From positions 10,060 to 74,059 of the forward strand of contig JAFQPI010000014.1 of NCBI GenBank assembly GCA_017411805.1: a DNA stretch of 64,000 bases, read 5' to 3'. This DNA is from Clostridia bacterium (GTDB lineage: Bacteria > Bacillota > Clostridia > Oscillospirales > CAG-272). Within the stretch, counting starts at the first letter, position 1, and each line of letters starts with the position of its first letter. Position numbers and translations under genes: made by a program. The notes under the pieces were generated by a model. It searched no databases and had not been told where the DNA came from. It saw only the letters and a list, made by a program, of their open reading frames with translations. Positions 2,698 to 16,881 of this stretch are shown in pieces.

Positions 2698-3347
2698 TCA
2701 AAAAGATACCTTTCAAGAGCCGCCACGTCGTAAAAGCATACGTCGGCGTTATTTTCCATAAATTCACGGCAAAGCTTGCTCGGCTGTGCCCAGAGTGCGG
2801 CGGCAAAGGTTACGCCCGCGTTTCGCGCCATATCGTAGCCGTGCTTGAGGTCATCTATGACGATAAAATCGGAAAGTTCGAGTGAATACTTTTTCGCTAT
2901 CTCAAAAACGGCGTAGGGCGAGGGCTTGCGCTTGTCCGCGCCCGCGTCCCAACCGTAAATTTTATTGGGAGCGCAGTTGAAATTCGCCTTCCAGTCGCGG
3001 AGGATGTTTTCGGTCTCGGAATGCGATGCGACGCAGAGGATTCCGCCCTCGGCGCGATGACGCTCGATTATACGCGCCATACCGGGGCAGGCATGGGGCG
3101 TGATCTCGCGGACGAATTTCTTCCAGTTGTTATATTCGTATTTCATTTCCTCGCCATCAAGCGCGAGGATCTTTGTGCAATATTCAAAAAAGCCGGGCTC
3201 GAAGCAGTAATCCATAAATTTCTCATACTCCGGATGCATATCGGGGCGCAGATGCGAGAGCGTGTCGAGCAGGGCGGGATAGTTGACCTCGGCGGTGGAG
3301 TTTACCGTTGTGTCGTCGTGGTCAAGGATCAAACATTTGTATTTCAT
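2694..3347 (-). CDS. HAD-superfamily hydrolase (phosphatase-like)
   Basis: Motif I LILDHDDTTV lies near the N-terminus when the start is ATG 3347. A C-terminal IVIDD motif is present. The ORF-track start at 3380 would overlap the upstream gene by 26 nt. Confidence 0.7.
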   Translation of the reverse strand: MKYKCLILDHDDTTVNSTAEVNYPALLDTLSHLRPDMHPEYEKFMDYCFEPGFFEYCTKILALDGEEMKYEYNNWKKFVREITPHACPGMARIIERHRAEGGILCVASHSETENILRDWKANFNCAPNKIYGWDAGADKRKPSPYAVFEIAKKYSLELSDFIVIDDLKHGYDMARNAGVTFAAALWAQPSKLCREFMENNADVCFYDVAALERYLFE

Positions 3348-3354
3348 ATAATTT

Positions 3355-4113
3355 CTATACGTCAAATGACGTCTTTTCATAAATTTTTTCTATCCGCTCG
3401 GTGCGGATGCGGGGATTTACGATCTCATCCGTGTAAAGGAAGAGGGGCGGCTCGAATTCGAGCAGCGGAGCGCCGCCGGATTTCGCCTCTACGAGGACGA
3501 AGGCGGGCTTGGAGTTTGTGTCCGCATAAACGGTGCACATCTTCTTGGGCTCAAGCTTTGCGGCTCTCATAGCCTCAAAAAGGTCGACGAGTCTGTCGGG
3601 GCGGTAAACGCAGACGAAGGTTCCGCCGTAGCGGAGAAGTCTTGCCGCCGCGGCGCAGAAATCCGAGATGCCGCCATGGATCTCGTGGCGCGCCGACTGA
3701 CGGATCGAGTCGGGACTTTCGGGCCCGGGATGCGCAAAATAGGGCGGATTAGAAAAAACGCAGTCGAATTCGCCGCCGAGATCCTTCGGGTGCGCCTCGC
3801 GGATATCTATATTTTTTACGGTGACCTTATCGGAAAACGAGTTGAGTACGACGTTTCGCTCGGCAAGAGCGGCGCTCTCGGGCTCGACCTCAAGAGCGGT
3901 GACGTGGTTGAATTTATCAAACGCCGCCGCCAGAAGCGTGACGACTCCCGTGCCGCATCCGAGCTCGCAGGCTCTTTTGCCACGGCGAAGTCGCGCGGCA
4001 AGAAGGTAGGAGTCGGAGCCCCAGGCAAGACCCTTACCGTTCGATATCATTTTTACTCTGTCGCCGACGGCGACGATCGACTCATTTTCCGAAATAATCA
4101 AGTTTTTTTCCAT
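3355..4113 (-). CDS. SAM-dependent methyltransferase, tRNA1(Val) m6A37 TrmN6/YfiC-like
   Basis: ELGCGTG SAM-binding motif and NPPY catalytic motif. SD AAGGA lies before the ATG at 4113. The holB-ricT-...-methyltransferase order is typical of Firmicutes. Confidence 0.75.
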   Translation of the reverse strand: MEKNLIISENESIVAVGDRVKMISNGKGLAWGSDSYLLAARLRRGKRACELGCGTGVVTLLAAAFDKFNHVTALEVEPESAALAERNVVLNSFSDKVTVKNIDIREAHPKDLGGEFDCVFSNPPYFAHPGPESPDSIRQSARHEIHGGISDFCAAAARLLRYGGTFVCVYRPDRLVDLFEAMRAAKLEPKKMCTVYADTNSKPAFVLVEAKSGGAPLLEFEPPLFLYTDEIVNPRIRTERIEKIYEKTSFDV

Positions 4114-4132
4114 AATTCTGTTCCTTAGGGTC

Positions 4133-4162
4133 AAAAAAAGCGGAGCGTGTACTCCGCTTTTT
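4133..4162 (-). terminator. rho-independent terminator downstream of ferredoxin
   Basis: GCGGAG-cgtgta-CTCCGC hairpin with flanking A7 and T5 runs. It ends only about 20 nt before the methyltransferase start codon. Confidence 0.65.
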
Positions 4163-4179
4163 ATGTGTGACTGAATTAA

Positions 4180-4350
4180 TTACTCAGCCTTGGGAGCCTC
4201 AACAGGGCAAGTATCTGCGCAAGAACCGCAGTCAATGCACTTGTCGGGGTCAATTACGTACTTGCCGTCCTGCTCGCTGATAGCCTCAACGGGGCATTCC
4301 TCAGCGCAAGCGCCGCAAGCGATGCAATCATCAGTGATCTTGTATGCCAT
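4180..4350 (-). CDS. fdx: 2x[4Fe-4S] clostridial-type ferredoxin (56 aa)
   Basis: Absent from the ORF track because it is under 60 aa. Hand translation gives MAYKITDDCIACGACAEECPVEAISEQDGKYVIDPDKCIDCGSCADTCPVEAPKAE, with two CxxCxxCxxxCP motifs. SD GGAGGTG precedes the ATG. Confidence 0.9.
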   Translation of the reverse strand: MAYKITDDCIACGACAEECPVEAISEQDGKYVIDPDKCIDCGSCADTCPVEAPKAE

Positions 4351-4460
4351 TGTGACACCTCCGTATGTTGTGGTGGCTATATTGTATCACAAATTAAGTG
4401 AAAATGGAATAGGTTTTTCAAAAAAAGTTTGAAAAAAATCAAAAAAATTTTGGAAAGGTA

Positions 4461-5903
4461 TTATTCGTCGTCGGAGACGGCGGACTTTTGGCTCTCTGCT
4501 TTTGTAATTACACGGATGGTACTCATATGATAATTCTTTGGAGCTGCATCCTGCTTATCAATAAGCTTGACTTTTACGTTGCCGGAGATGGGGAAGATAT
4601 CCATAACGGTGCCGCGTCCGTCGGGCGTGTCTACTATAGAATCCGCGGGAGGCATGAGGGCGATCTCACGCTCGTAAGCCTCCTGTTCATAGCGCAGACA
4701 GCACATAAGTCTGCCGCAAGTGCCGGAGATCTTGGCGGCGTTGATAGAAAGACCCTGCTCCTTTGCCATCTTGATCGATACTTGAACAAAATTCGGAAGG
4801 AATCCCGCGCAGCATAGCTTGCGTCCGCAAACTCCGAAGCCGCCCACCATACGCGCCTCGTCACGGATACCGATCTGTCGCAGCTCGATTCGGGTGCGGA
4901 ATACCGATGCAAGATCCTTGACAAGGGCGCGGAAGTCAACGCGTCCGGCGGAGGTGAAGAAGAAGATGAGCTTTGAATTATCAAAGGTATATTGAGAATC
5001 TACAAGCTTCATATCGAGCCCGTGATCCGCGATCTTCGTAAGACAGATCTTGAAAGCCTCCTTCTGACGGCGGCGGTTATCCTCATGATGAGCCTCGTCC
5101 TCCTTGGTTGCGGGGCGGATAACGGGGCGGAGAGGAGCAACGATCTGATCCTCCGAGACTATACGGTTTGCAATAACGACCTCTCCGAATTCAAGTCCCT
5201 GAGCGGTCTCAACAATGGCGTGATTTCCAACGGTGAATTTCATATCGCAAGGATCGAAGTAATAGACCTTACTTCCGTGCTCAAAACGAATGCCGATGAT
5301 CTCGGGACCCTCGATGACCTTGGGCTCGGATGGAACAACGTCGGCAAAAACCGAATCAAGAGTGGGATCGGGAGGCATGGAATCAAGATAGCTGTCGTCG
5401 ATCTTTCCCAAAGAGAGAAAATCCGATTCGGATTTTGAACGCGAGGGGAGAAAATCAAGATCGTTTTCGGGAAGAGAGGTCAGAAGTTCTGCGGGCTCGC
5501 GGGTCTTCTGCTTGTCTCTTGAACGGTTGCGGCTCTGATTTCTTTGCTGATTCTGTGCCTTTGGCTCAGCGGACTGAGGCGGGGGTGTCTGCTCCTGCAC
5601 TGCGGGACGGCTTTCCTGCTCGGGGCGTCGATTCTGATTGTGATTCTGATTATTATGATGCTTTTTGTTTCTGTTTCTGTTGTTCTTATGAGGCTGACCC
5701 GATGGTTGGTTGGCCGGTGCGGCAGTTTCAGCGGGAGCTGCTGCCTCGGATTTTACCTGCTCGTTTGACTCCGGGGGCTTCTGCGGCTTATTTTGCTTGC
5801 TTCGACTGTGATGGTGCCTCTTATGATAGGGCTTCTTTCCGCCCTTGTTTTCCGAAGGCGCGCCGCCCCCGGGCTTTTTATTGTTGTTTTCGATGTTTTC
5901 CAA
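4461..5903 (-). CDS. ricT: PSP1-domain protein RicT/YaaT with a ~200-aa low-complexity N-terminal extension
   Basis: The C-terminal 280 aa match the YaaT/PSP1 family (GVCGRKLCC, GTCGRLMCCLRYE). It lies immediately downstream of holB, as in Bacillus. The N-terminus is rich in K/H/N/Q/P/R. Confidence 0.85.
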   Translation of the reverse strand: MENIENNNKKPGGGAPSENKGGKKPYHKRHHHSRSKQNKPQKPPESNEQVKSEAAAPAETAAPANQPSGQPHKNNRNRNKKHHNNQNHNQNRRPEQESRPAVQEQTPPPQSAEPKAQNQQRNQSRNRSRDKQKTREPAELLTSLPENDLDFLPSRSKSESDFLSLGKIDDSYLDSMPPDPTLDSVFADVVPSEPKVIEGPEIIGIRFEHGSKVYYFDPCDMKFTVGNHAIVETAQGLEFGEVVIANRIVSEDQIVAPLRPVIRPATKEDEAHHEDNRRRQKEAFKICLTKIADHGLDMKLVDSQYTFDNSKLIFFFTSAGRVDFRALVKDLASVFRTRIELRQIGIRDEARMVGGFGVCGRKLCCAGFLPNFVQVSIKMAKEQGLSINAAKISGTCGRLMCCLRYEQEAYEREIALMPPADSIVDTPDGRGTVMDIFPISGNVKVKLIDKQDAAPKNYHMSTIRVITKAESQKSAVSDDE

Positions 5904-10724: not shown

Positions 10725-10792
10725 GCGACTAGTGACGGAAAAAGTGACCAGTGACTAGTGACTAGTGACTAGTGACTAGTGACTAGTGAATG
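10725..10792. repeat. heptad tandem array (GTGACTA)n, left
   Basis: Five perfect GTGACTA units at 10751-10785. Degenerate units flank them: GTGACCA, GTGAATG, and GCGACTAGTGACGG further left. Confidence 0.9.
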
Positions 10793-11028: not shown

Positions 11029-11068
11029 CACTAGTGACTAGTGACTAGTCACTAGTCACTAGTCACTA
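11029..11068. repeat. heptad array (SACTAGT)n forming a perfect 34-bp palindrome, right
   Basis: CACTAGT GACTAGT GACTAGT CACTAGT CACTAGT CACTA. I checked the palindrome 11030-11063 base by base. It starts 10 bp after the stop codon of the 11074-12480 gene. Confidence 0.9.
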
Positions 11069-11073
11069 ATTAA

Positions 11074-12480
11074 TCAGTCTCTCTTCTTGAATACAATAGC
11101 GGTTCCGAGGATAGCAACGATCATAGCTGCGCCTGCAACGAATCCGCCGCAGCCCTTTTCTTCAGCGGGAGCCTCGGTGCCGGGAGCGGGAGTCTGCTCG
11201 GGAGCCGCTGTGGGAGCATCGGTAGCTTCGGGAGAATCGGTAGCTTCGGGAGCGTCCGTGGTGGCTTCGGGTGCCTTTGTGGCTTCGTCCGTTGTTGCGG
11301 GAGCCTCTGTGGTATCGGGAGCCTCAGTCTTTTCGGGGTAAGCTGCGGCAAGACGATCGTGGATGCCCTTAGCGCAAGCATCAACGACGGCTGCGGCATC
11401 AGCGGTAAGACCTACTGCAAAGATCTGGTCAAGTCCTGCCTGTCCGCTTCCCTGGTCACCGAGGAAGAGGATATCATTGACAACGGCTGCGTTGCAGAGG
11501 GAGTATACACCAACGGCGATAAGGATATCGTCACGTGAAATGGGAAGATTGGTGTTATCGGCTGTGACCTCGATATTTGCTACGGGAGTAAGAAGGGTCT
11601 TGTCGTAGATTCCTACCTTGCCGGTCTTCTGAGTGGTAACGAAAAGGTAGTTGTTCCAGATAGCAACGCCGTATGCAGTATCATGAGCGAACTCGTTGAG
11701 GATAAGAGAACCGTCAGAGGAGAGAACGAGAACCTTCGCACCGGCGGAATTGTTTCCTGCGAGGTAGATGGTGCCGTCGGTGTCAACGTCAAGGTAGTTG
11801 CCTTCCTTGAGGCTGTAGGGCTCCTTCTGAAGGTCGATGAGACCGCCTTCGCCGAAAGCTGTGTCGAGAACGGGATTTGCGGGATCTGTAACGTTGAAGC
11901 GAGCAAGATAGTCAACGTCGTAGTTTACAACAACGTATGCATAGTAGTTTCCGTTTAATTTTTCGACTGTAATACCGTTTACGCCGGTTTTTACGGAATC
12001 GCTGGTGGTAACGATATTTGCGTAGCCAATCTGTTTGATCGTGTTATTATCAAAAGTAAAGGCTGCAATGTCTGCTCTGCCGTAGTTGGGATACCATGCA
12101 AGTGCTGCATAGAGGTAACCTCTGTCATCGGTAGCAAGACCCTTGGGATAGGATACTGATCCGTCGGGCTGGACGAATTGAAATCCTGCAACTACCTTAC
12201 CGGTTGCGATCTCCGACATTTCGATAGCAGAGGATCCCTTGGGGTTGAGATATCCGCCGAATGCGTATTTGCCATCCTGAGAGATAGCCATGCCGCGCAT
12301 CTGGTACTTACCGTAGAAAAGTGAGTCATCTCCGGTATAGCTAAGTCCATTGCTGGACTGCATGATAAGGGTGTACTTGAATGCTGCTGCCTCAGTATCG
12401 GTAAGTGCCGCAGAGGGAAGAACGAATACTGACGCGAGGATCGTGAGTGTAAGTAAGAGTGTAATAAGCTTTTTCATCAT
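11074..12480 (-). CDS. secreted beta-propeller-like surface protein with T/P/A/E-rich linker and C-terminal membrane anchor
   Basis: Signal peptide MMKKLITLLLTLTILASVFVLPSAA. Beta-strand-rich body. Linker repeats of the form PEATDAPEATDSPEATD. C-terminus GCGGFVAGAAMIVAILGTAIVFKKRD. SD AAAGGAG. Confidence 0.7.
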   Translation of the reverse strand: MMKKLITLLLTLTILASVFVLPSAALTDTEAAAFKYTLIMQSSNGLSYTGDDSLFYGKYQMRGMAISQDGKYAFGGYLNPKGSSAIEMSEIATGKVVAGFQFVQPDGSVSYPKGLATDDRGYLYAALAWYPNYGRADIAAFTFDNNTIKQIGYANIVTTSDSVKTGVNGITVEKLNGNYYAYVVVNYDVDYLARFNVTDPANPVLDTAFGEGGLIDLQKEPYSLKEGNYLDVDTDGTIYLAGNNSAGAKVLVLSSDGSLILNEFAHDTAYGVAIWNNYLFVTTQKTGKVGIYDKTLLTPVANIEVTADNTNLPISRDDILIAVGVYSLCNAAVVNDILFLGDQGSGQAGLDQIFAVGLTADAAAVVDACAKGIHDRLAAAYPEKTEAPDTTEAPATTDEATKAPEATTDAPEATDSPEATDAPTAAPEQTPAPGTEAPAEEKGCGGFVAGAAMIVAILGTAIVFKKRD

Positions 12481-12625: not shown

Positions 12626-13510
12626 ATGAGAATTGCAGTATCTTCAAAGTTTGCAGAGAGAGCCCGAGAAGGCGTACTTGGATCGAAAGAAAGCTTTTCC
12701 CTCGTGAAAAATGCGGGCTTCGATGCTCTTGAGATAGATCTTTCAAGAGGGATCGGCGGCGCGGCTCTCCGGTCGGATAATTGGAAGGACGGGATGATCT
12801 CGATCCGAAATGCCGCAGAAGCTAATGGGTTGGAGATCGTTTCCGCGCATGCACCGCATGACCCGAGGTTATATATCCCCGAAACCGAACCGTCGGCTGA
12901 GGAAAGAGCTTGCTTTGACGCTCTGCTTGTTCGCTCAGCCGAGGCGGCAAAGCTTCTTGGCGCGGGTATTCTCGTCGTTCATCCTGTTGACGATCTGATA
13001 AATGCGGAGTACGACAGCACGGTAAATCTTGAAACGAATAAAAAATACCTCGGCGGAGTTGTTGCCGAGGCAGAGAAGTATGGAATAAAGATCGCGGTTG
13101 AGAACGTCTACTATTCGAGCGCGTATCGTCTTCGCCGCCGCTACGGTGAGAGCTCGGAGGACGTTATCAAGCTTGCGGACGCGTTAGGCGCGGGAATTTG
13201 CTGGAACTGCGGACACGCTCATCCGGTGACGATGGATCAGGCGCGTGCCGTCAAGAAGATCGGCGAGAGGATGATCCTTATGCACCTCAGCGACAGCCGC
13301 GGACATACGGACGCGGGACTGCCCCCGATGATCGGCGGCGGAAATATCAAATGGGAGCAGATCATGCCCGCGGTCGCCGAGATCGGATATGAGGGTTACG
13401 CGGTCCTTACCGCCGAAAGCTATCTTCCCATGATGCCAAGAGTACTCCAACCCGATGCCGCCGCTTTCGCAAGAACTGTTTGCCGCAGACTCGAGGAGTT
13501 GGCGAGATAA
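12626..13510 (+). CDS. sugar phosphate isomerase/epimerase (xylose isomerase-like TIM barrel)
   Basis: Family-typical blocks: GFDALEI, ILVVHP, IKIAVEN, HLSDS. Confidence 0.8.
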   Translation: MRIAVSSKFAERAREGVLGSKESFSLVKNAGFDALEIDLSRGIGGAALRSDNWKDGMISIRNAAEANGLEIVSAHAPHDPRLYIPETEPSAEERACFDALLVRSAEAAKLLGAGILVVHPVDDLINAEYDSTVNLETNKKYLGGVVAEAEKYGIKIAVENVYYSSAYRLRRRYGESSEDVIKLADALGAGICWNCGHAHPVTMDQARAVKKIGERMILMHLSDSRGHTDAGLPPMIGGGNIKWEQIMPAVAEIGYEGYAVLTAESYLPMMPRVLQPDAAAFARTVCRRLEELAR

Positions 13511-13548
13511 AACAAAATCACCGCGCGGAGCGCGGTGATTTTGTTTTT
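13506..13548. terminator. palindromic repeat T, copy T3 (bidirectional terminator)
   Basis: GATAAAACAAAATCACCGCGC-gga-GCGCGGTGATTTTGTTTTT. It overlaps the stop codons of both convergent genes and is identical over 43 nt to the copy at 15606-15648. Confidence 0.85.
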
Positions 13549-14656: not shown

Positions 14657-14704
14657 CTTGTTTACCTCGTTTCACGAAAATTTGTCACCGGTGTTTTCGG
14701 ATAT

Positions 14705-14733
14705 ATTATACACCATTAATGAAATTTCCGCAA
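14705..14733 (-). promoter_or_regulatory. sigma-A promoter for the HTH-TPR gene
   Basis: Minus strand: TTGCGG, 17 nt, TATAAT. It lies within the decayed four-helix-bundle gene remnant. Confidence 0.55.
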
Positions 14734-14766: not shown

Positions 14767-14844
14767 TTAATAATTCAAGCGTTGTTCTGCATAAATGTTC
14801 GCGAAAATGCTTGATGAATACACAAGTAACGGATTTTTTGCCAT
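14767..14844 (-). pseudogene. decayed copy of the four-helix-bundle protein gene
   Basis: Encodes MAKNPLLVYSSSIFANIYAEQRLNY followed by a stop. The first 10 codons and the SSS-FANI block align to the intact copy at 15068-15421, with about 28 codons deleted and downstream decay. Confidence 0.7.
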
Positions 14845-14866
14845 AGATATCGCCTCGCATCTTAAT

Positions 14867-15029
14867 CACGCGTAAGCGTGTATGGAATCCGCAGCTTGCT
14901 GCGGTATGGAATTGCGACGAAGTCGCGAATGGAATCAAGCCGCAGAGATAATACACCAAGGTGATGCCATACGGCTGCGCCGATGCCATACACGCTGAAG
15001 CGTGATTCCATACCAAGCCTGCGGCTTGG
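14867..15029. repeat. structured repeat R, copy A (hairpin ladder; candidate ncRNA or protein-binding array)
   Basis: Seven short GC hairpins are separated by 8-nt linkers: TATGGAAT x2 and AATGGAAT, then ATGCCATA x2 and ATTCCATA. Nearly identical to 15444-15606. Confidence 0.85.
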
Positions 15030-15068
15030 ATAAAACAAAATCACCGCGCGGAGCGCGGTGATTTGTTT
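15029..15068. terminator. palindromic repeat T, copy T2
   Basis: Same palindrome as T1 and T3, with a shortened T-run (TTTGTTTC). Confidence 0.8.
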
Positions 15069-15421
15069 CAACTTTGTTTTAATTTGTTTTCTATTGTAAT
15101 GCAGGAGGAGGTTAACATTCTGCGTATTCTACCGCAAAGATTACGGTATTCCTTAAAAGTCACTTCGTCGATGCCTCCGGAAGAAAGGATCAATTTGAGC
15201 CAACTCTCGGTTTCCATACATTCCTTTCGGGCAATTTCGAATTTTGAGAGCATATCGGCAAGACTCTGAGGATACTGTGCTTCCGAAATGTTGGCAAATA
15301 CGCTTGATGAAGACTTTTTGATCTGGTATGCAGCATTTGAATCTATTTTGTGATTATTACAAAGAGCCGCAATTTCACATGCCAGTACTTCTGAATACTC
15401 AAGTAACGGATTTTTTGCCAT
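15068..15421 (-). CDS. four-helix-bundle protein (23S rRNA intervening-sequence protein / Avd-like family)
   Basis: Family-typical core QIKKSSSSVFANISEAQYPQSLADMLSKFEIARKECMETESWLKLI. 117 aa. SD AGGTGA lies 5 nt before the ATG at 15421. Confidence 0.8.
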   Translation of the reverse strand: MAKNPLLEYSEVLACEIAALCNNHKIDSNAAYQIKKSSSSVFANISEAQYPQSLADMLSKFEIARKECMETESWLKLILSSGGIDEVTFKEYRNLCGRIRRMLTSSCITIENKLKQS

Positions 15422-15443
15422 AGATATCACCTCGCATCTTAAT

Positions 15444-15606
15444 CACGCGTAAGCGTGTATGGAATCCGCAGCTTGCTACGGTATGGAATTGCGACGAAGT
15501 CGCGAATGGAATCAAGCCGCAGAGAAAATACATCAAGGTGATGCCATACGGCTACGCCGATGCCATACACGCTGAAGCGTGATTCCATACCAAGCCTGCG
15601 GCTTGG
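15444..15606. repeat. structured repeat R, copy B
   Basis: Differs from copy A at 5 substitutions within R. The repeat unit actually spans 15392-15648 versus 14815-15068, a period of 577 bp. Confidence 0.85.
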
Positions 15607-15648
15607 ATAAAACAAAATCACCGCGCGGAGCGCGGTGATTTTGTTTTT
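15606..15648. terminator. palindromic repeat T, copy T1
   Basis: Its 43 nt are identical to T3. It directly abuts the partial tRNA 3'-end copy. Confidence 0.8.
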
Positions 15649-15674
15649 GGTGACCCATCGGAGACTCTGAACTC
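15648..15674 (-). repeat. partial duplicate of tRNA-Lys 3' end (T-arm plus acceptor plus CCA)
   Basis: TGGTGACCCATCGGAGACTC(T)GAACTC matches 15808-15833 with one inserted T, in the same orientation. Confidence 0.85.
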
Positions 15675-15769
15675 ATGTGTGCGGATTGAATTTGTGCGCA
15701 AGTGACATTGGTACTGCCGCACACTATGGCGAGCTAAAGCTCGCAGAGTTCTGAGTCTTTAGAGTTAGC

Positions 15770-15807
15770 AATAAGAAAACGCCTCGCTTTGCGAGGCGTT
15801 TTCTTAT
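15770..15807 (-). terminator. rho-independent terminator of tRNA-Lys
   Basis: AATAAGAAAACGCCTCGC-ttt-GCGAGGCGTTTTCTTATT, immediately after the CCA end. Confidence 0.8.
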
Positions 15808-15883
15808 TGGTGACCCATCGGAGACTCGAACTCCGGACACCTTGATTAAAAGTCAAGTGCTCTACCGTCTGAGCTAATGGGTC
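15808..15883 (-). tRNA. tRNA-Lys (anticodon UUU), CCA encoded
   Basis: Hand-folded cloverleaf GACCCATTAGCTCAGACGGTAGAGCACTTGACTTTTAATCAAGGTGTCCGGAGTTCGAGTCTCCGATGGGTCACCA. Anticodon stem is CTTGA/TCAAG and the loop is CTTTTAA. Confidence 0.9.
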
Positions 15884-15987: not shown

Positions 15988-16881
15988 TTAGTTTTTCTTA
16001 TAATAGTTTGATGCATCATATTTCCTGAGTCTTCCCGTATCTGCATAGATTTCGAAAACGACGAGCGCGGAAAACTCATTTTCCGTATCCGGATATACAA
16101 AACGATAGATGCCGCCGCCTTTTTTCGGTTTTACTTCACTTGATAGACGGAGTTTCTCTTTGGTTACTATCATATCTACGGTCCGCGCGGCTTCGCTCTC
16201 TGGGATCCGATAGTTTTCGTTGACGTCTCTGTCAAAGCAATACATCGTTACTCTTGCCCCCGTGCCTTCAACCGCCACAAAAATATTATCGCCCGAAAAG
16301 ATATGCGCACCTGTTCTGTCTGTTTGACATTCTTTAAAAACCGCATTCGGGCATGCGAATGCGGCAGCTCTTTTTGCTGCAAATTCCTTGCCGCCTTTGC
16401 CGATCTTTTTGAGGATCTGAGCGGAAATGAGCTCTTCGGTCGTTTCGTCTGTGCTATCTTCCGTACTTGTTTCGGGATCGCAGAGTGAGCGGAGTGCTTC
16501 GCCGCCGTCTCCATCAAGTGCTTTTTTGACGGCAAGGGAAAGCTTTTCTGCCATTACTGAGTCGTATTCGCCTTCGCATATACCGTTTATGATAGAGTAG
16601 ACAGTTCCGCAATCCTTAAGCCCTGATCGGGAGAGATAAGCTTCTGCTTGTCCCGCCGCACGGTTTATGGCAGGAATATCTCCTTCTTTTACCGCTTTCT
16701 CAAGCTTAGCCGAGGCATCTGCCAGATCCTTCACGACAAGCTTTTGCGAAGCGGCAATATATTCGTTTTTCTGTTTTTGCGATTTGCTGACCGCAAATGA
16801 GGTTGCCGACAGCAATAATCCGATGCCGATAGCCGCCAGAAGAGGAAGCAGGAGTCTGCCGGGCTGTTCTCTTTTTATCAT
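15988..16881 (-). CDS. membrane-anchored protein with C-terminal PepSY-like domain (YpeB-like)
   Basis: N-terminal TM segment LLLPLLAAIGIGLLLSA. The C-terminal pattern IYRFVYPD...VVFEIYADTGRLRKYD resembles PepSY. The functional call is weak. Confidence 0.55.
   Translation of the reverse strand: MIKREQPGRLLLPLLAAIGIGLLLSATSFAVSKSQKQKNEYIAASQKLVVKDLADASAKLEKAVKEGDIPAINRAAGQAEAYLSRSGLKDCGTVYSIINGICEGEYDSVMAEKLSLAVKKALDGDGGEALRSLCDPETSTEDSTDETTEELISAQILKKIGKGGKEFAAKRAAAFACPNAVFKECQTDRTGAHIFSGDNIFVAVEGTGARVTMYCFDRDVNENYRIPESEAARTVDMIVTKEKLRLSSEVKPKKGGGIYRFVYPDTENEFSALVVFEIYADTGRLRKYDASNYYKKN

Follow-up and report, generated by a model that had tools for sequence, protein, structure and literature searches.

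A non-coding element that we call R occurs twice in a 64,000-nt stretch of contig JAFQPI010000014.1 from a Clostridia bacterium (this whole stretch is hereafter the window), where it lies downstream of a tRNA-Lys gene, with one copy on either side of a gene for a small four-helix-bundle (4HB) protein. R is built of two mirror-image arms of units, each consisting of an 8-nt linker and a short G+C hairpin. Comparison of approximately 170 homologous copies collected from gut and rumen Clostridia showed that R is a conserved structured element whose structure is under selection, and that it is one member of a family of hairpin-rich intergenic modules that has not been described before. R usually fills the gap between a terminator (T), which is typically found at the CCA end of a tRNA gene, and a promoter (P) firing outward, and the modules turn over rapidly. 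The explanation that we favor, and in which we have about as much confidence as doubt, is that a new modular DNA repeat has R at its core, between a terminator and a promoter, and resembles repetitive extragenic palindromic (REP) sequences, bacterial interspersed mosaic elements (BIMEs) and BOX elements, and that this module turns over by recombination and by slippage of its units.

Anatomy of R in the window

An earlier note on this DNA had described R as two copies of a hairpin array. Its coordinates and sequences for copy B (15444–15606, minus strand; covariance-model match of 114.6 bits) and copy A (14867–15029, minus strand; 112.1 bits) proved correct to the base, including hairpins HP1, HP2, HP3, HP5, HP6 and HP7. 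On the plus strand, the six 8-nt linkers L1 to L6 read TATGGAAT, TATGGAAT and AATGGAAT in the first half and ATGCCATA, ATGCCATA and ATTCCATA in the second. The central CAAGCCGCAG is, as had been claimed, exactly complementary to CTGCGGCTTG in HP7; what had been missed is a fourth small hairpin in the centre, CACCAAGGTG. Read on the minus strand, copy B begins with hairpin Ha (equal to HP7), followed by three units of TATGGMAT plus hairpin, a TAT-rich spacer and CTGCGGCTTG, which pairs with the 5′ arm and loop of Ha; three units of ATTCCATN plus hairpin and a further 22 nt then lead to the ATG of the 4HB gene.

The direct repeat holding R is larger than had been thought: it covers 250 nt (14815–15064 and 15392–15641, 98% identical at a spacing of 577 nt) and also takes in T and the first codons of the 4HB gene. 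Its copies are separated by six substitutions (from copy A to copy B on the plus strand: A>T, G>A, G>A, T>A, C>T and G>A), of which four lie within R. One of these had been taken for an uncompensated change in HP2 of copy B; on the gene-sense (minus) strand it gives a G-U wobble. The change in the centre hairpin of copy B gives a wobble on the plus strand instead. The pattern of R is not due to chance (ATGGAAT-N10-20-ATGGAAT occurs 4 times in the window versus 0.03 expected; folding against shuffled sequences gave z = −8.1 and −7.0 for the two strands). Open reading frames across R consist of the hairpins themselves, and we share the previous verdict that they are not credible.

R copies in gut and rumen Clostridia

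Two samples of loci were used. The protein-based sample comprises 80 loci from different species of the Genome Taxonomy Database (GTDB), reached via relatives of the 4HB protein and belonging to metagenome-assembled genomes of rumen and gut Oscillospiraceae, Acutalibacteraceae and Christensenellaceae. The independent sample comprises 95 metagenome loci, which were picked out not via the protein but with a 27-nt pattern taken from the end of R that holds HP7 and the first linker. R-like elements stand just upstream of 4HB homologues and on the same strand in approximately 74 of 85 loci from different species. The family layout begins with T, AT, hairpin Ha (CCAAGCC-GCA-GGCTTGG) and three units of YATGKMAT plus hairpin, continues with a TAT-rich spacer and a 10–12-nt segment complementary to the 5′ arm and loop of Ha, and ends with units of ATKMCATN plus hairpin (from two to eight in number, most often three or four) and then GATT. 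The T-proximal arm is bracketed by an inverted repeat of 10–12 nt. An invertible promoter segment between these repeats was also considered; the flipped orientation was found in 0 of the approximately 74 loci selected via 4HB, and the segment, at 75–95 bp, is very short.

Nothing but tRNA reached the gathering threshold of Rfam 15 in the window, and at E ≤ 10 the best non-tRNA matches between 14600 and 16000 scored 26 bits against a threshold of 55 bits and were located on T. Five further related loci gave tRNA and an unrelated thiamine pyrophosphate riboswitch only. R itself matches no Rfam family at gathering or permissive thresholds. Searches of phage and plasmid records and of viral contigs gave no match, and the plasmid hits obtained for a related locus spanned its tRNA only; a phage or plasmid origin was rejected. 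In the literature, nothing relevant was found on the 4HB protein family together with tRNA, nor on tRNA-linked repeats in Clostridia.

Covariation of hairpins, long-range helix and linkers

A covariance model was built of the T-proximal domain, and 145 matches were aligned. In this alignment 93.6% of cells were paired, compared to 66.8% in shuffles and 30–40% with slid partners, and 689 cells were changed on both sides versus 188. The corresponding values for the independent metagenome set were 96.6% versus 81.5% for pairing and 266 versus 67 for changes on both sides. Alignments of this kind are fitted to the model; counts of linker-anchored hairpins are independent of it, and the hairpin segments delimited by linkers comprised 192–369 distinct sequences that were approximately 94–96% Watson–Crick. 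The long-range helix between HP7 and the centre showed at least five compensated variants (GCCGCAG, GCCGACAG, GACCGAAGG, AACTGAAAG, ATCCGAAGGA, AGTCGCAGA). The local hairpin alone cannot explain these, because the changes include positions in its loop. Thus the pairing read from the window is borne out by homologues: both the hairpins and the HP7–centre pairing covary strongly across the approximately 170 copies.

Regarding the linkers, their types switch jointly in both halves (GGAA/TTCC, GTAA/TTAC, ATCA/TGAT and GTCA/TGAC; the full linkers are TATGGAAT/ATTCCATA, TATGTAAT/ATTACATA, TATGTCAT/ATGACATA and TATATCAT/ATGATATA), and the two arms were concordant in type in 119 of 133 copies. Minimum-energy folds contained linker–linker pairing in 93 of 109 copies and the long-range helix in just 10, so that the two represent alternative states. 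The nested ladder of paired linkers that had been proposed is, on account of this co-typing and these folds, a reasonable fold. Two observations speak against its strict form: in nearly all copies the third T-proximal linker is either TATGGCAT or TATGTCAT, irrespective of the linker it would pair with, and the unit numbers of the two arms often differ. Two linker types coexist on one contig (locus L036), which points to complementarity within the element rather than to one shared binding protein.

Placement of R between tRNA ends and downstream genes

T lies before R in 112 of 142 distinct copies, and CCA is found at the first base of T in 89. A complete co-oriented tRNA gene ends −2 to +3 nt from the start of T in 64 of the 142, with 14 amino-acid types represented, and a further 30 copies retain CCA and tRNA-like remnants only. 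Identical T sequences were found behind different tRNAs. T has the features of an intrinsic terminator, with a G+C-rich stem ahead of a T-run and RNA-type wobble tolerance on the transcribed strand, and its 126 distinct stems are 97% Watson–Crick. At the other end, in approximately 30 of 149 copies, P (TTGATT-17-TATAMT) starts in the last bases of R, which form its −35 box (TTGATT), and fires away from R to give a leader of approximately 25 nt. A second clade of 4HB genes is among those with P between R and the gene. In the clade of the window, R adjoins the ribosome-binding site, with 22–39 nt between R and the 4HB ATG.

Among 78 independently sampled R copies, a 4HB gene was downstream of 18. 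What follows the other 60 is a gene for a small membrane protein, a lipoprotein or a hypothetical protein, a tRNA, or no more than a further terminator. The 4HB gene is thus a frequent and not an obligatory cargo, although it is the commonest in the sample. The former description of R as sitting directly 5′ of the 4HB start codon applies to the window, where 22 nt separate copy B from the ATG, but R cannot be regarded as a leader specific to 4HB genes.

The locus in the window

The R module of the window lies downstream of tRNA-Lys on the same strand. In minus-strand order, the tRNA promoter (TTGACA-17-TATCAT, 15927–15899, from a promoter scan) and the tRNA-Lys(UUU) gene (15808–15883; ARAGORN; Rfam tRNA 70.9 bits) are followed by an insertion of approximately 160 nt (15645–15812, minus strand; fold z = −9.5), which parts the tRNA from T and R. 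It consists of a new terminator hairpin that begins directly after the tRNA CCA, a strongly structured spacer of approximately 100 nt and a 27-nt duplicate of the tRNA-Lys 3′ end (15648–15674, minus strand; direct repeat D3), and the duplicated T-arm partly serves as one strand of a 12-bp stem within it. The insertion is kept in loci L193 and L016 and missing from L191. An analogous 290-nt GC-rich insertion is present at tRNA-Glu in L015.

Next comes the T beside copy B (15606–15648), which came out of a repeat search and lies between R and the duplicated CCA end of the tRNA, touching both. It is a perfect palindrome of 18 bp with an A-run at one end and a T-run at the other, and so is terminator-like in both directions. 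Copy B and the 117-aa 4HB gene (15068–15421, minus strand) follow, and then a second T (15029–15071; repeat search, also called by a terminator scan), into which the 4HB stop codon runs without a gap and which marks where a local tandem duplication is joined. Copy A is followed by the decayed start of a second 4HB gene (14770–14846, minus strand; MAKNPLL, an internal deletion and a stop, identified by translation and as repeat D4, with the same layout in L193), by a gene for a regulator with helix-turn-helix and tetratricopeptide-repeat domains (HTH-TPR), and by a third T (13506–13548), 100% identical to that at 15606 and situated between the convergent ends of the HTH-TPR gene and a gene of the AP (apurinic/apyrimidinic) endonuclease family. 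In the promoter scan of the window, no promoter was detectable between the tRNA promoter and the 4HB ATG. The divergent region ahead of the HTH-TPR gene holds a good promoter-like site on the plus strand (TTGTCA-16-TATTAT, 14682–14709); it is directed toward copy A, across the remnant of the second 4HB gene.

The decayed 4HB start after copy A indicates that T, R and 4HB were duplicated in tandem and that one copy decayed. L191 represents a simpler syntenic state, in which tRNA-Lys, T, R, 4HB and HTH-TPR stand in direct succession, while L193 has both the tandem copy and the insertion as in the window. The 4HB protein belongs to PF05635/TIGR02436 (Pfam 7.4e-18; NCBIfam 3.2e-19; PDB 2rld 1.4e-10), the family of the 23S rRNA intervening-sequence proteins and of Avd from diversity-generating retroelements (DGRs). 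Its close relatives, over 3000 in number, come for the most part from very short contigs, the majority of homologues being on contigs of 0.5–3 kb. Its identity to syntenic relatives (87% and 96%) is in line with that of neighboring proteins, indicating that the module at this locus was inherited vertically; recent horizontal transfer of the 4HB gene to this locus is ruled out by the same values.

Two further features of the window were observed. Upstream of tRNA-Lys, a 297-aa protein without Pfam match (15988–16881, minus strand) evolves much faster than its neighbors, with 53–63% identity in relatives whose flanking proteins are 73–93% identical. Just downstream of a 468-aa gene (11074–12480), two heptamer tandem arrays, AGTGACT ×6.7 (10743–10789) and CACTAGT ×5.7 (11029–11068), lie approximately 240 nt apart and seem, by eye, to be reverse complements in register.

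Turnover and rearrangement of R modules

Tandem arrays of R, gene and R were found in the window and in L193, L036, L037, L076 and L079. In L037, direct repeats made up of the tRNA 3′ end, T and R stand on both sides of a unit of approximately 605 bp (T, R, 4HB and a terminator). The second R of L036 (2895–3110) has TATATCAT/ATGATATA linkers and a first unit of TATGGAA type, being a chimera of two linker types. Unit number also changes: the promoter-proximal arm has from 2 to 8 units across copies, and L024 contains a 19-nt unit, TATGGCAT-CACCGAAGGTG, three times in tandem within R. The same R of L024 is interrupted in a linker by an insertion sequence (414–2500) that encodes a 516-aa transposase-like protein, with TTCCAT duplicated at both junctions, so that the T-proximal domain is parted from the last unit and the 4HB gene. 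L009 (4430–4555) and L010 (2520–2645) carry a second array of five hairpin plus TGATGATATACA units without T-proximal domain, following the 4HB gene and preceding a promoter; the two loci are identical up to the last base of the array and unrelated beyond, which places a breakpoint exactly at the array end. Between the window and the syntenic L191, T and several R hairpins have been replaced or have decayed, while the flanking proteins are still 63–88% identical. Behind the second R of L076, a 694-aa protein (3182–5266) has a GIY-YIG-like motif (KGIYILCL...GYYVGKA), read by eye.

Foldable DNA or a structured transcript

Structured RNAs usually contain several percent of G-U pairs, and the wobble argument made here rests partly on this background. 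T served as an internal control: its stems had 36 G-T versus 5 A-C on the tRNA-sense (gene-sense) strand, as expected of an RNA hairpin. On the other hand, the interiors of R hairpins had 14 G-T versus 13 A-C overall, with 6:0 in the T-proximal arm and 8:13 in the other. The two arms mirror each other in linkers, in loops (GAA/GCA/GTAA versus TTC/TGC/TTAC) and, through a conserved U-G pair at the outer position, in wobble preference, and a covariance model of the first arm gives a weak match to the antisense strand of the second. No conserved promoter was found for either strand of R by scans and by eye, including positions inside R and antisense to P. Taken together, the wobble counts, the mirrored arms and the lack of a conserved promoter make it more likely that the constraint acts on DNA that can fold, or on both strands, than on a single functional transcript. 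A putative RNA role for R is somewhat disfavored, because R lies between a terminator and an outward-firing promoter and its hairpins, unlike T, show no G-U excess. UUCG tetraloops were discarded as an RNA signature, as they are actually 3-nt UUC loops closed by C-G.

In the DNA-repeat explanation, R belongs to a dispersed element of Oscillospirales-type gut and rumen Clostridia, whose full module consists of T, usually beginning at the CCA end of a co-oriented tRNA gene or remnant, R, often a sigma-70-type P, and then a cargo gene. The constraint would act on DNA able to fold, either single-stranded or as a cruciform, as in REP, BIME and BOX elements and in REPINs (hairpin-forming REP doublets), and the module would persist and spread by recombination between copies and slippage of units. 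With its own terminator and promoter, it would leave its neighbors undisturbed. In the window, the module behind tRNA-Lys has undergone one tandem duplication and the decay of one 4HB copy, and a 160-nt insertion has later set it apart from the tRNA. The data show the anatomy of the module, its conservation and covariation, its placement relative to tRNA genes, T and P, and its rapid turnover; how it spreads, and any function that it may have for the host, are inferred.

Several observations weigh against this explanation. No mobilizing enzyme was found among the examined neighbors, which are housekeeping genes, and no empty site or target-site duplication was seen among the collected loci. 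The sole copy-number figure is 3 exact pattern matches on one 120-kb contig, besides two copies per locus in several loci. The T-proximal arm does have a weak sense-strand wobble bias, as seen in its interior count and in frequent outer U-G pairs. In the clade of the window, the absence of a promoter between R and the adjoining ribosome-binding site means that part of R is transcribed if 4HB is expressed. The three-way complementarity among the HP7 arm, its own partner and the centre looks like an RNA switch. Moreover, selection for many tiny hairpins on DNA would here require a mechanism that is hypothetical.

Some of these points favor the reading of R as a cis-acting, gene-sense (minus-strand) leader RNA that controls the 4HB gene, which we consider unlikely in general but possible in the clade of the window. 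Such a leader would be bistable, either forming the local HP7 hairpin with the linker ladder or forming the long-range HP7–centre helix with the linkers free, and the 4HB protein might bind R as an autoregulator. The short distance from R to the ATG with no detectable promoter between, the covariation of both the local HP7 hairpin and the competing helix, the ladder as minimum-energy fold in most copies, and the weak sense-strand wobble bias in the T-proximal arm and at the distal end of the long helix are consistent with this. The 4HB family also includes the nucleic-acid-binding DGR protein Avd (PMC10053308). However, most of the unbiased R copies have no 4HB gene downstream, a strong terminator lies ahead of R, and a promoter intervenes between R and the downstream gene both in the other 4HB clade and where R precedes genes of another kind, leaving a leader of only approximately 25 nt. 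The hairpins lack the G-U excess of T, and in the syntenic L191 several of them have decayed while the 4HB gene is intact.

attC sites of integrons are conserved in structure over sequence and have complementary short boxes. R might similarly be a folded-DNA recombination site for gene cassettes gathering at tRNA ends, where a recombinase encoded elsewhere would recognize paired linkers and hairpins in single-stranded DNA. The arrays of R, gene and R with different cargo genes, the repeat-flanked 4HB unit of L037, the chimeric R of L036, the breakpoint at the array end between L009 and L010, and the complementary 8-nt boxes in an element that keeps its structure more than its sequence all fit such a site. 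We nevertheless regard this as rather improbable, since no integrase or other recombinase was present in any examined neighborhood, neither T nor R contains the attC consensus boxes (RYYYAAC/GTTRRRY), circular or empty-site forms were not seen, and homologous recombination between repeats could equally produce the arrays. R is also upstream of its gene, often with a promoter, and has many small side hairpins instead of one bulged stem; it shares with attC a definition by foldable structure with paired short boxes, a location at the boundaries of small cassettes and an occurrence in arrays.

The orientation described in the earlier note, in which R is a plus-strand small RNA antisense to 4HB and ended by T, appears less probable still. 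T does follow R directly on the plus strand and is symmetric, a GNRA-type loop is present on that strand in the window, and the promoter-like site at 14682–14709 is upstream of copy A. But the search gave no promoter for copy B and no conserved one among homologues, whichever cargo gene follows R supplies the sequence on that side, the wobble bias of the T stem is on the opposite strand, and family-wide GNRA loops in the T-proximal arm are on the minus strand (9 versus 0).

A more speculative route, to which we give very little credence, is that T-R units reach the ends of tRNA genes through an RNA intermediate, as a bacterial counterpart of tRNA-linked retroposons. It is proposed that a plus-strand R transcript ending in the U-tail of T would be reverse-transcribed from the 3′-CCA-OH of a mature tRNA as primer, that the resulting tRNA–cDNA chimera would recombine into the tRNA gene, and that the Avd-like 4HB protein would be the cofactor of a reverse transcriptase encoded elsewhere. 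This would explain why, behind 14 or more tRNA types, CCA is the exact point at which the A-run of T begins, why T travels with R rather than with the tRNA, and why older units carry 27-nt fragments of tRNA 3′ ends.

Finally, the reading of R as an operator that is made up of PlcR-type half-sites and serves the HTH-TPR regulator encoded next to it, suggested by the resemblance of TATGGA and TCCATA to halves of the PlcR box and by the neighboring regulator gene in the window and close relatives, is hardly credible and was rejected, because regulator homologues occur close to just 4 of 80 and 1 of 95 related loci and no full box (TATGNAN4TNCATR) occurs in 14800–15650 with up to one mismatch; besides, other linker types (GTAA, ATCA) are unlike the box, and the spacers are selected as palindromes of any sequence, which a double-stranded operator does not need.

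Comparison with known systems

REP, BIME and REPIN elements are short intergenic palindromes that form clusters and inverted groups and are inherited vertically with turnover within genomes (PMC3116915, PMC3337134, PMC3733652). R resembles them in its short palindromic units in intergenic DNA, typically downstream of genes, in the clustering of units whose inverted groups can form a larger hairpin (the co-typed, pairing inverted arms described above), in the retention of structure as sequence drifts, and in vertical inheritance with within-genome turnover. By definition, however, a REP or REPIN palindrome is imperfect, 20–40 bp long and tagged with a conserved GTAG or CGTC at one end (PMC3733652), whereas R has hairpin units of 10–20 nt, YATGKMAT/ATKMCATR linkers and neither tag. 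Its hairpins are also much shorter (4–8 bp) and diverse, the conserved part being the 8-nt linkers. Further differences are the fixed architecture of a bracketing inverted repeat, three units, a centre and 3–8 further units, the nucleotide-precise position behind tRNA genes, the built-in terminator and promoter, and the fact that no gene for a REP-associated tyrosine transposase (RAYT) was identified among the examined neighbors. REP families typically number tens to hundreds of copies in a genome that also encodes a cognate RAYT.

BOX elements of Streptococcus pneumoniae have the form boxA-boxB(n)-boxC with modules of 45–59 nt and no encoded transposase, and they can influence the expression of neighboring genes. 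R is comparable in having constant end modules, a variable number of internal modules, ends that can pair and no encoded transposase, but it has no sequence relationship to BOX, its modules are approximately 20–24 nt, and it is distinguished by its mirror-image arms, co-typed linkers and association with tRNA ends and 4HB genes.

The 23S rRNA intervening sequences likewise place a PF05635 gene in non-coding structured DNA at a stable-RNA gene, which is rRNA there and tRNA here; unlike them, the R-linked 4HB gene lies outside the stable RNA, behind its terminator. A DGR-style repeat was ruled out, as the six substitutions between the window copies are not adenine-specific and neither a reverse transcriptase among the neighbors nor a template/variable repeat pair was present. 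Riboswitch and attenuator leaders have, as R does, mutually exclusive helices sharing one strand upstream of a coding region. R differs from them in that it has no Rfam match, a promoter is often downstream, G-U pairs are not enriched, and its multiple copies precede unrelated genes.

If the DNA-repeat explanation is true, R would represent a previously unrecognized, abundant repeat family in uncultured gut and rumen Clostridia, extending the REP/BIME/BOX concept to a group in which none has been described. It would be a cause of breaks in metagenome assemblies, in keeping with the short contigs that carry most 4HB homologues, and it would mark the ends of tRNA operons with nucleotide precision. 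Terminator–promoter modules and small cargo genes would be moved around by R, and the family would offer a handle on how such elements target tRNA ends. If R instead acts as RNA, it would be a new class of structured RNA with an unusual ladder architecture and a built-in alternative helix. In either case, proteins of PF05635, the family of rRNA intervening-sequence proteins and Avd, are tied to a second kind of stable-RNA gene.

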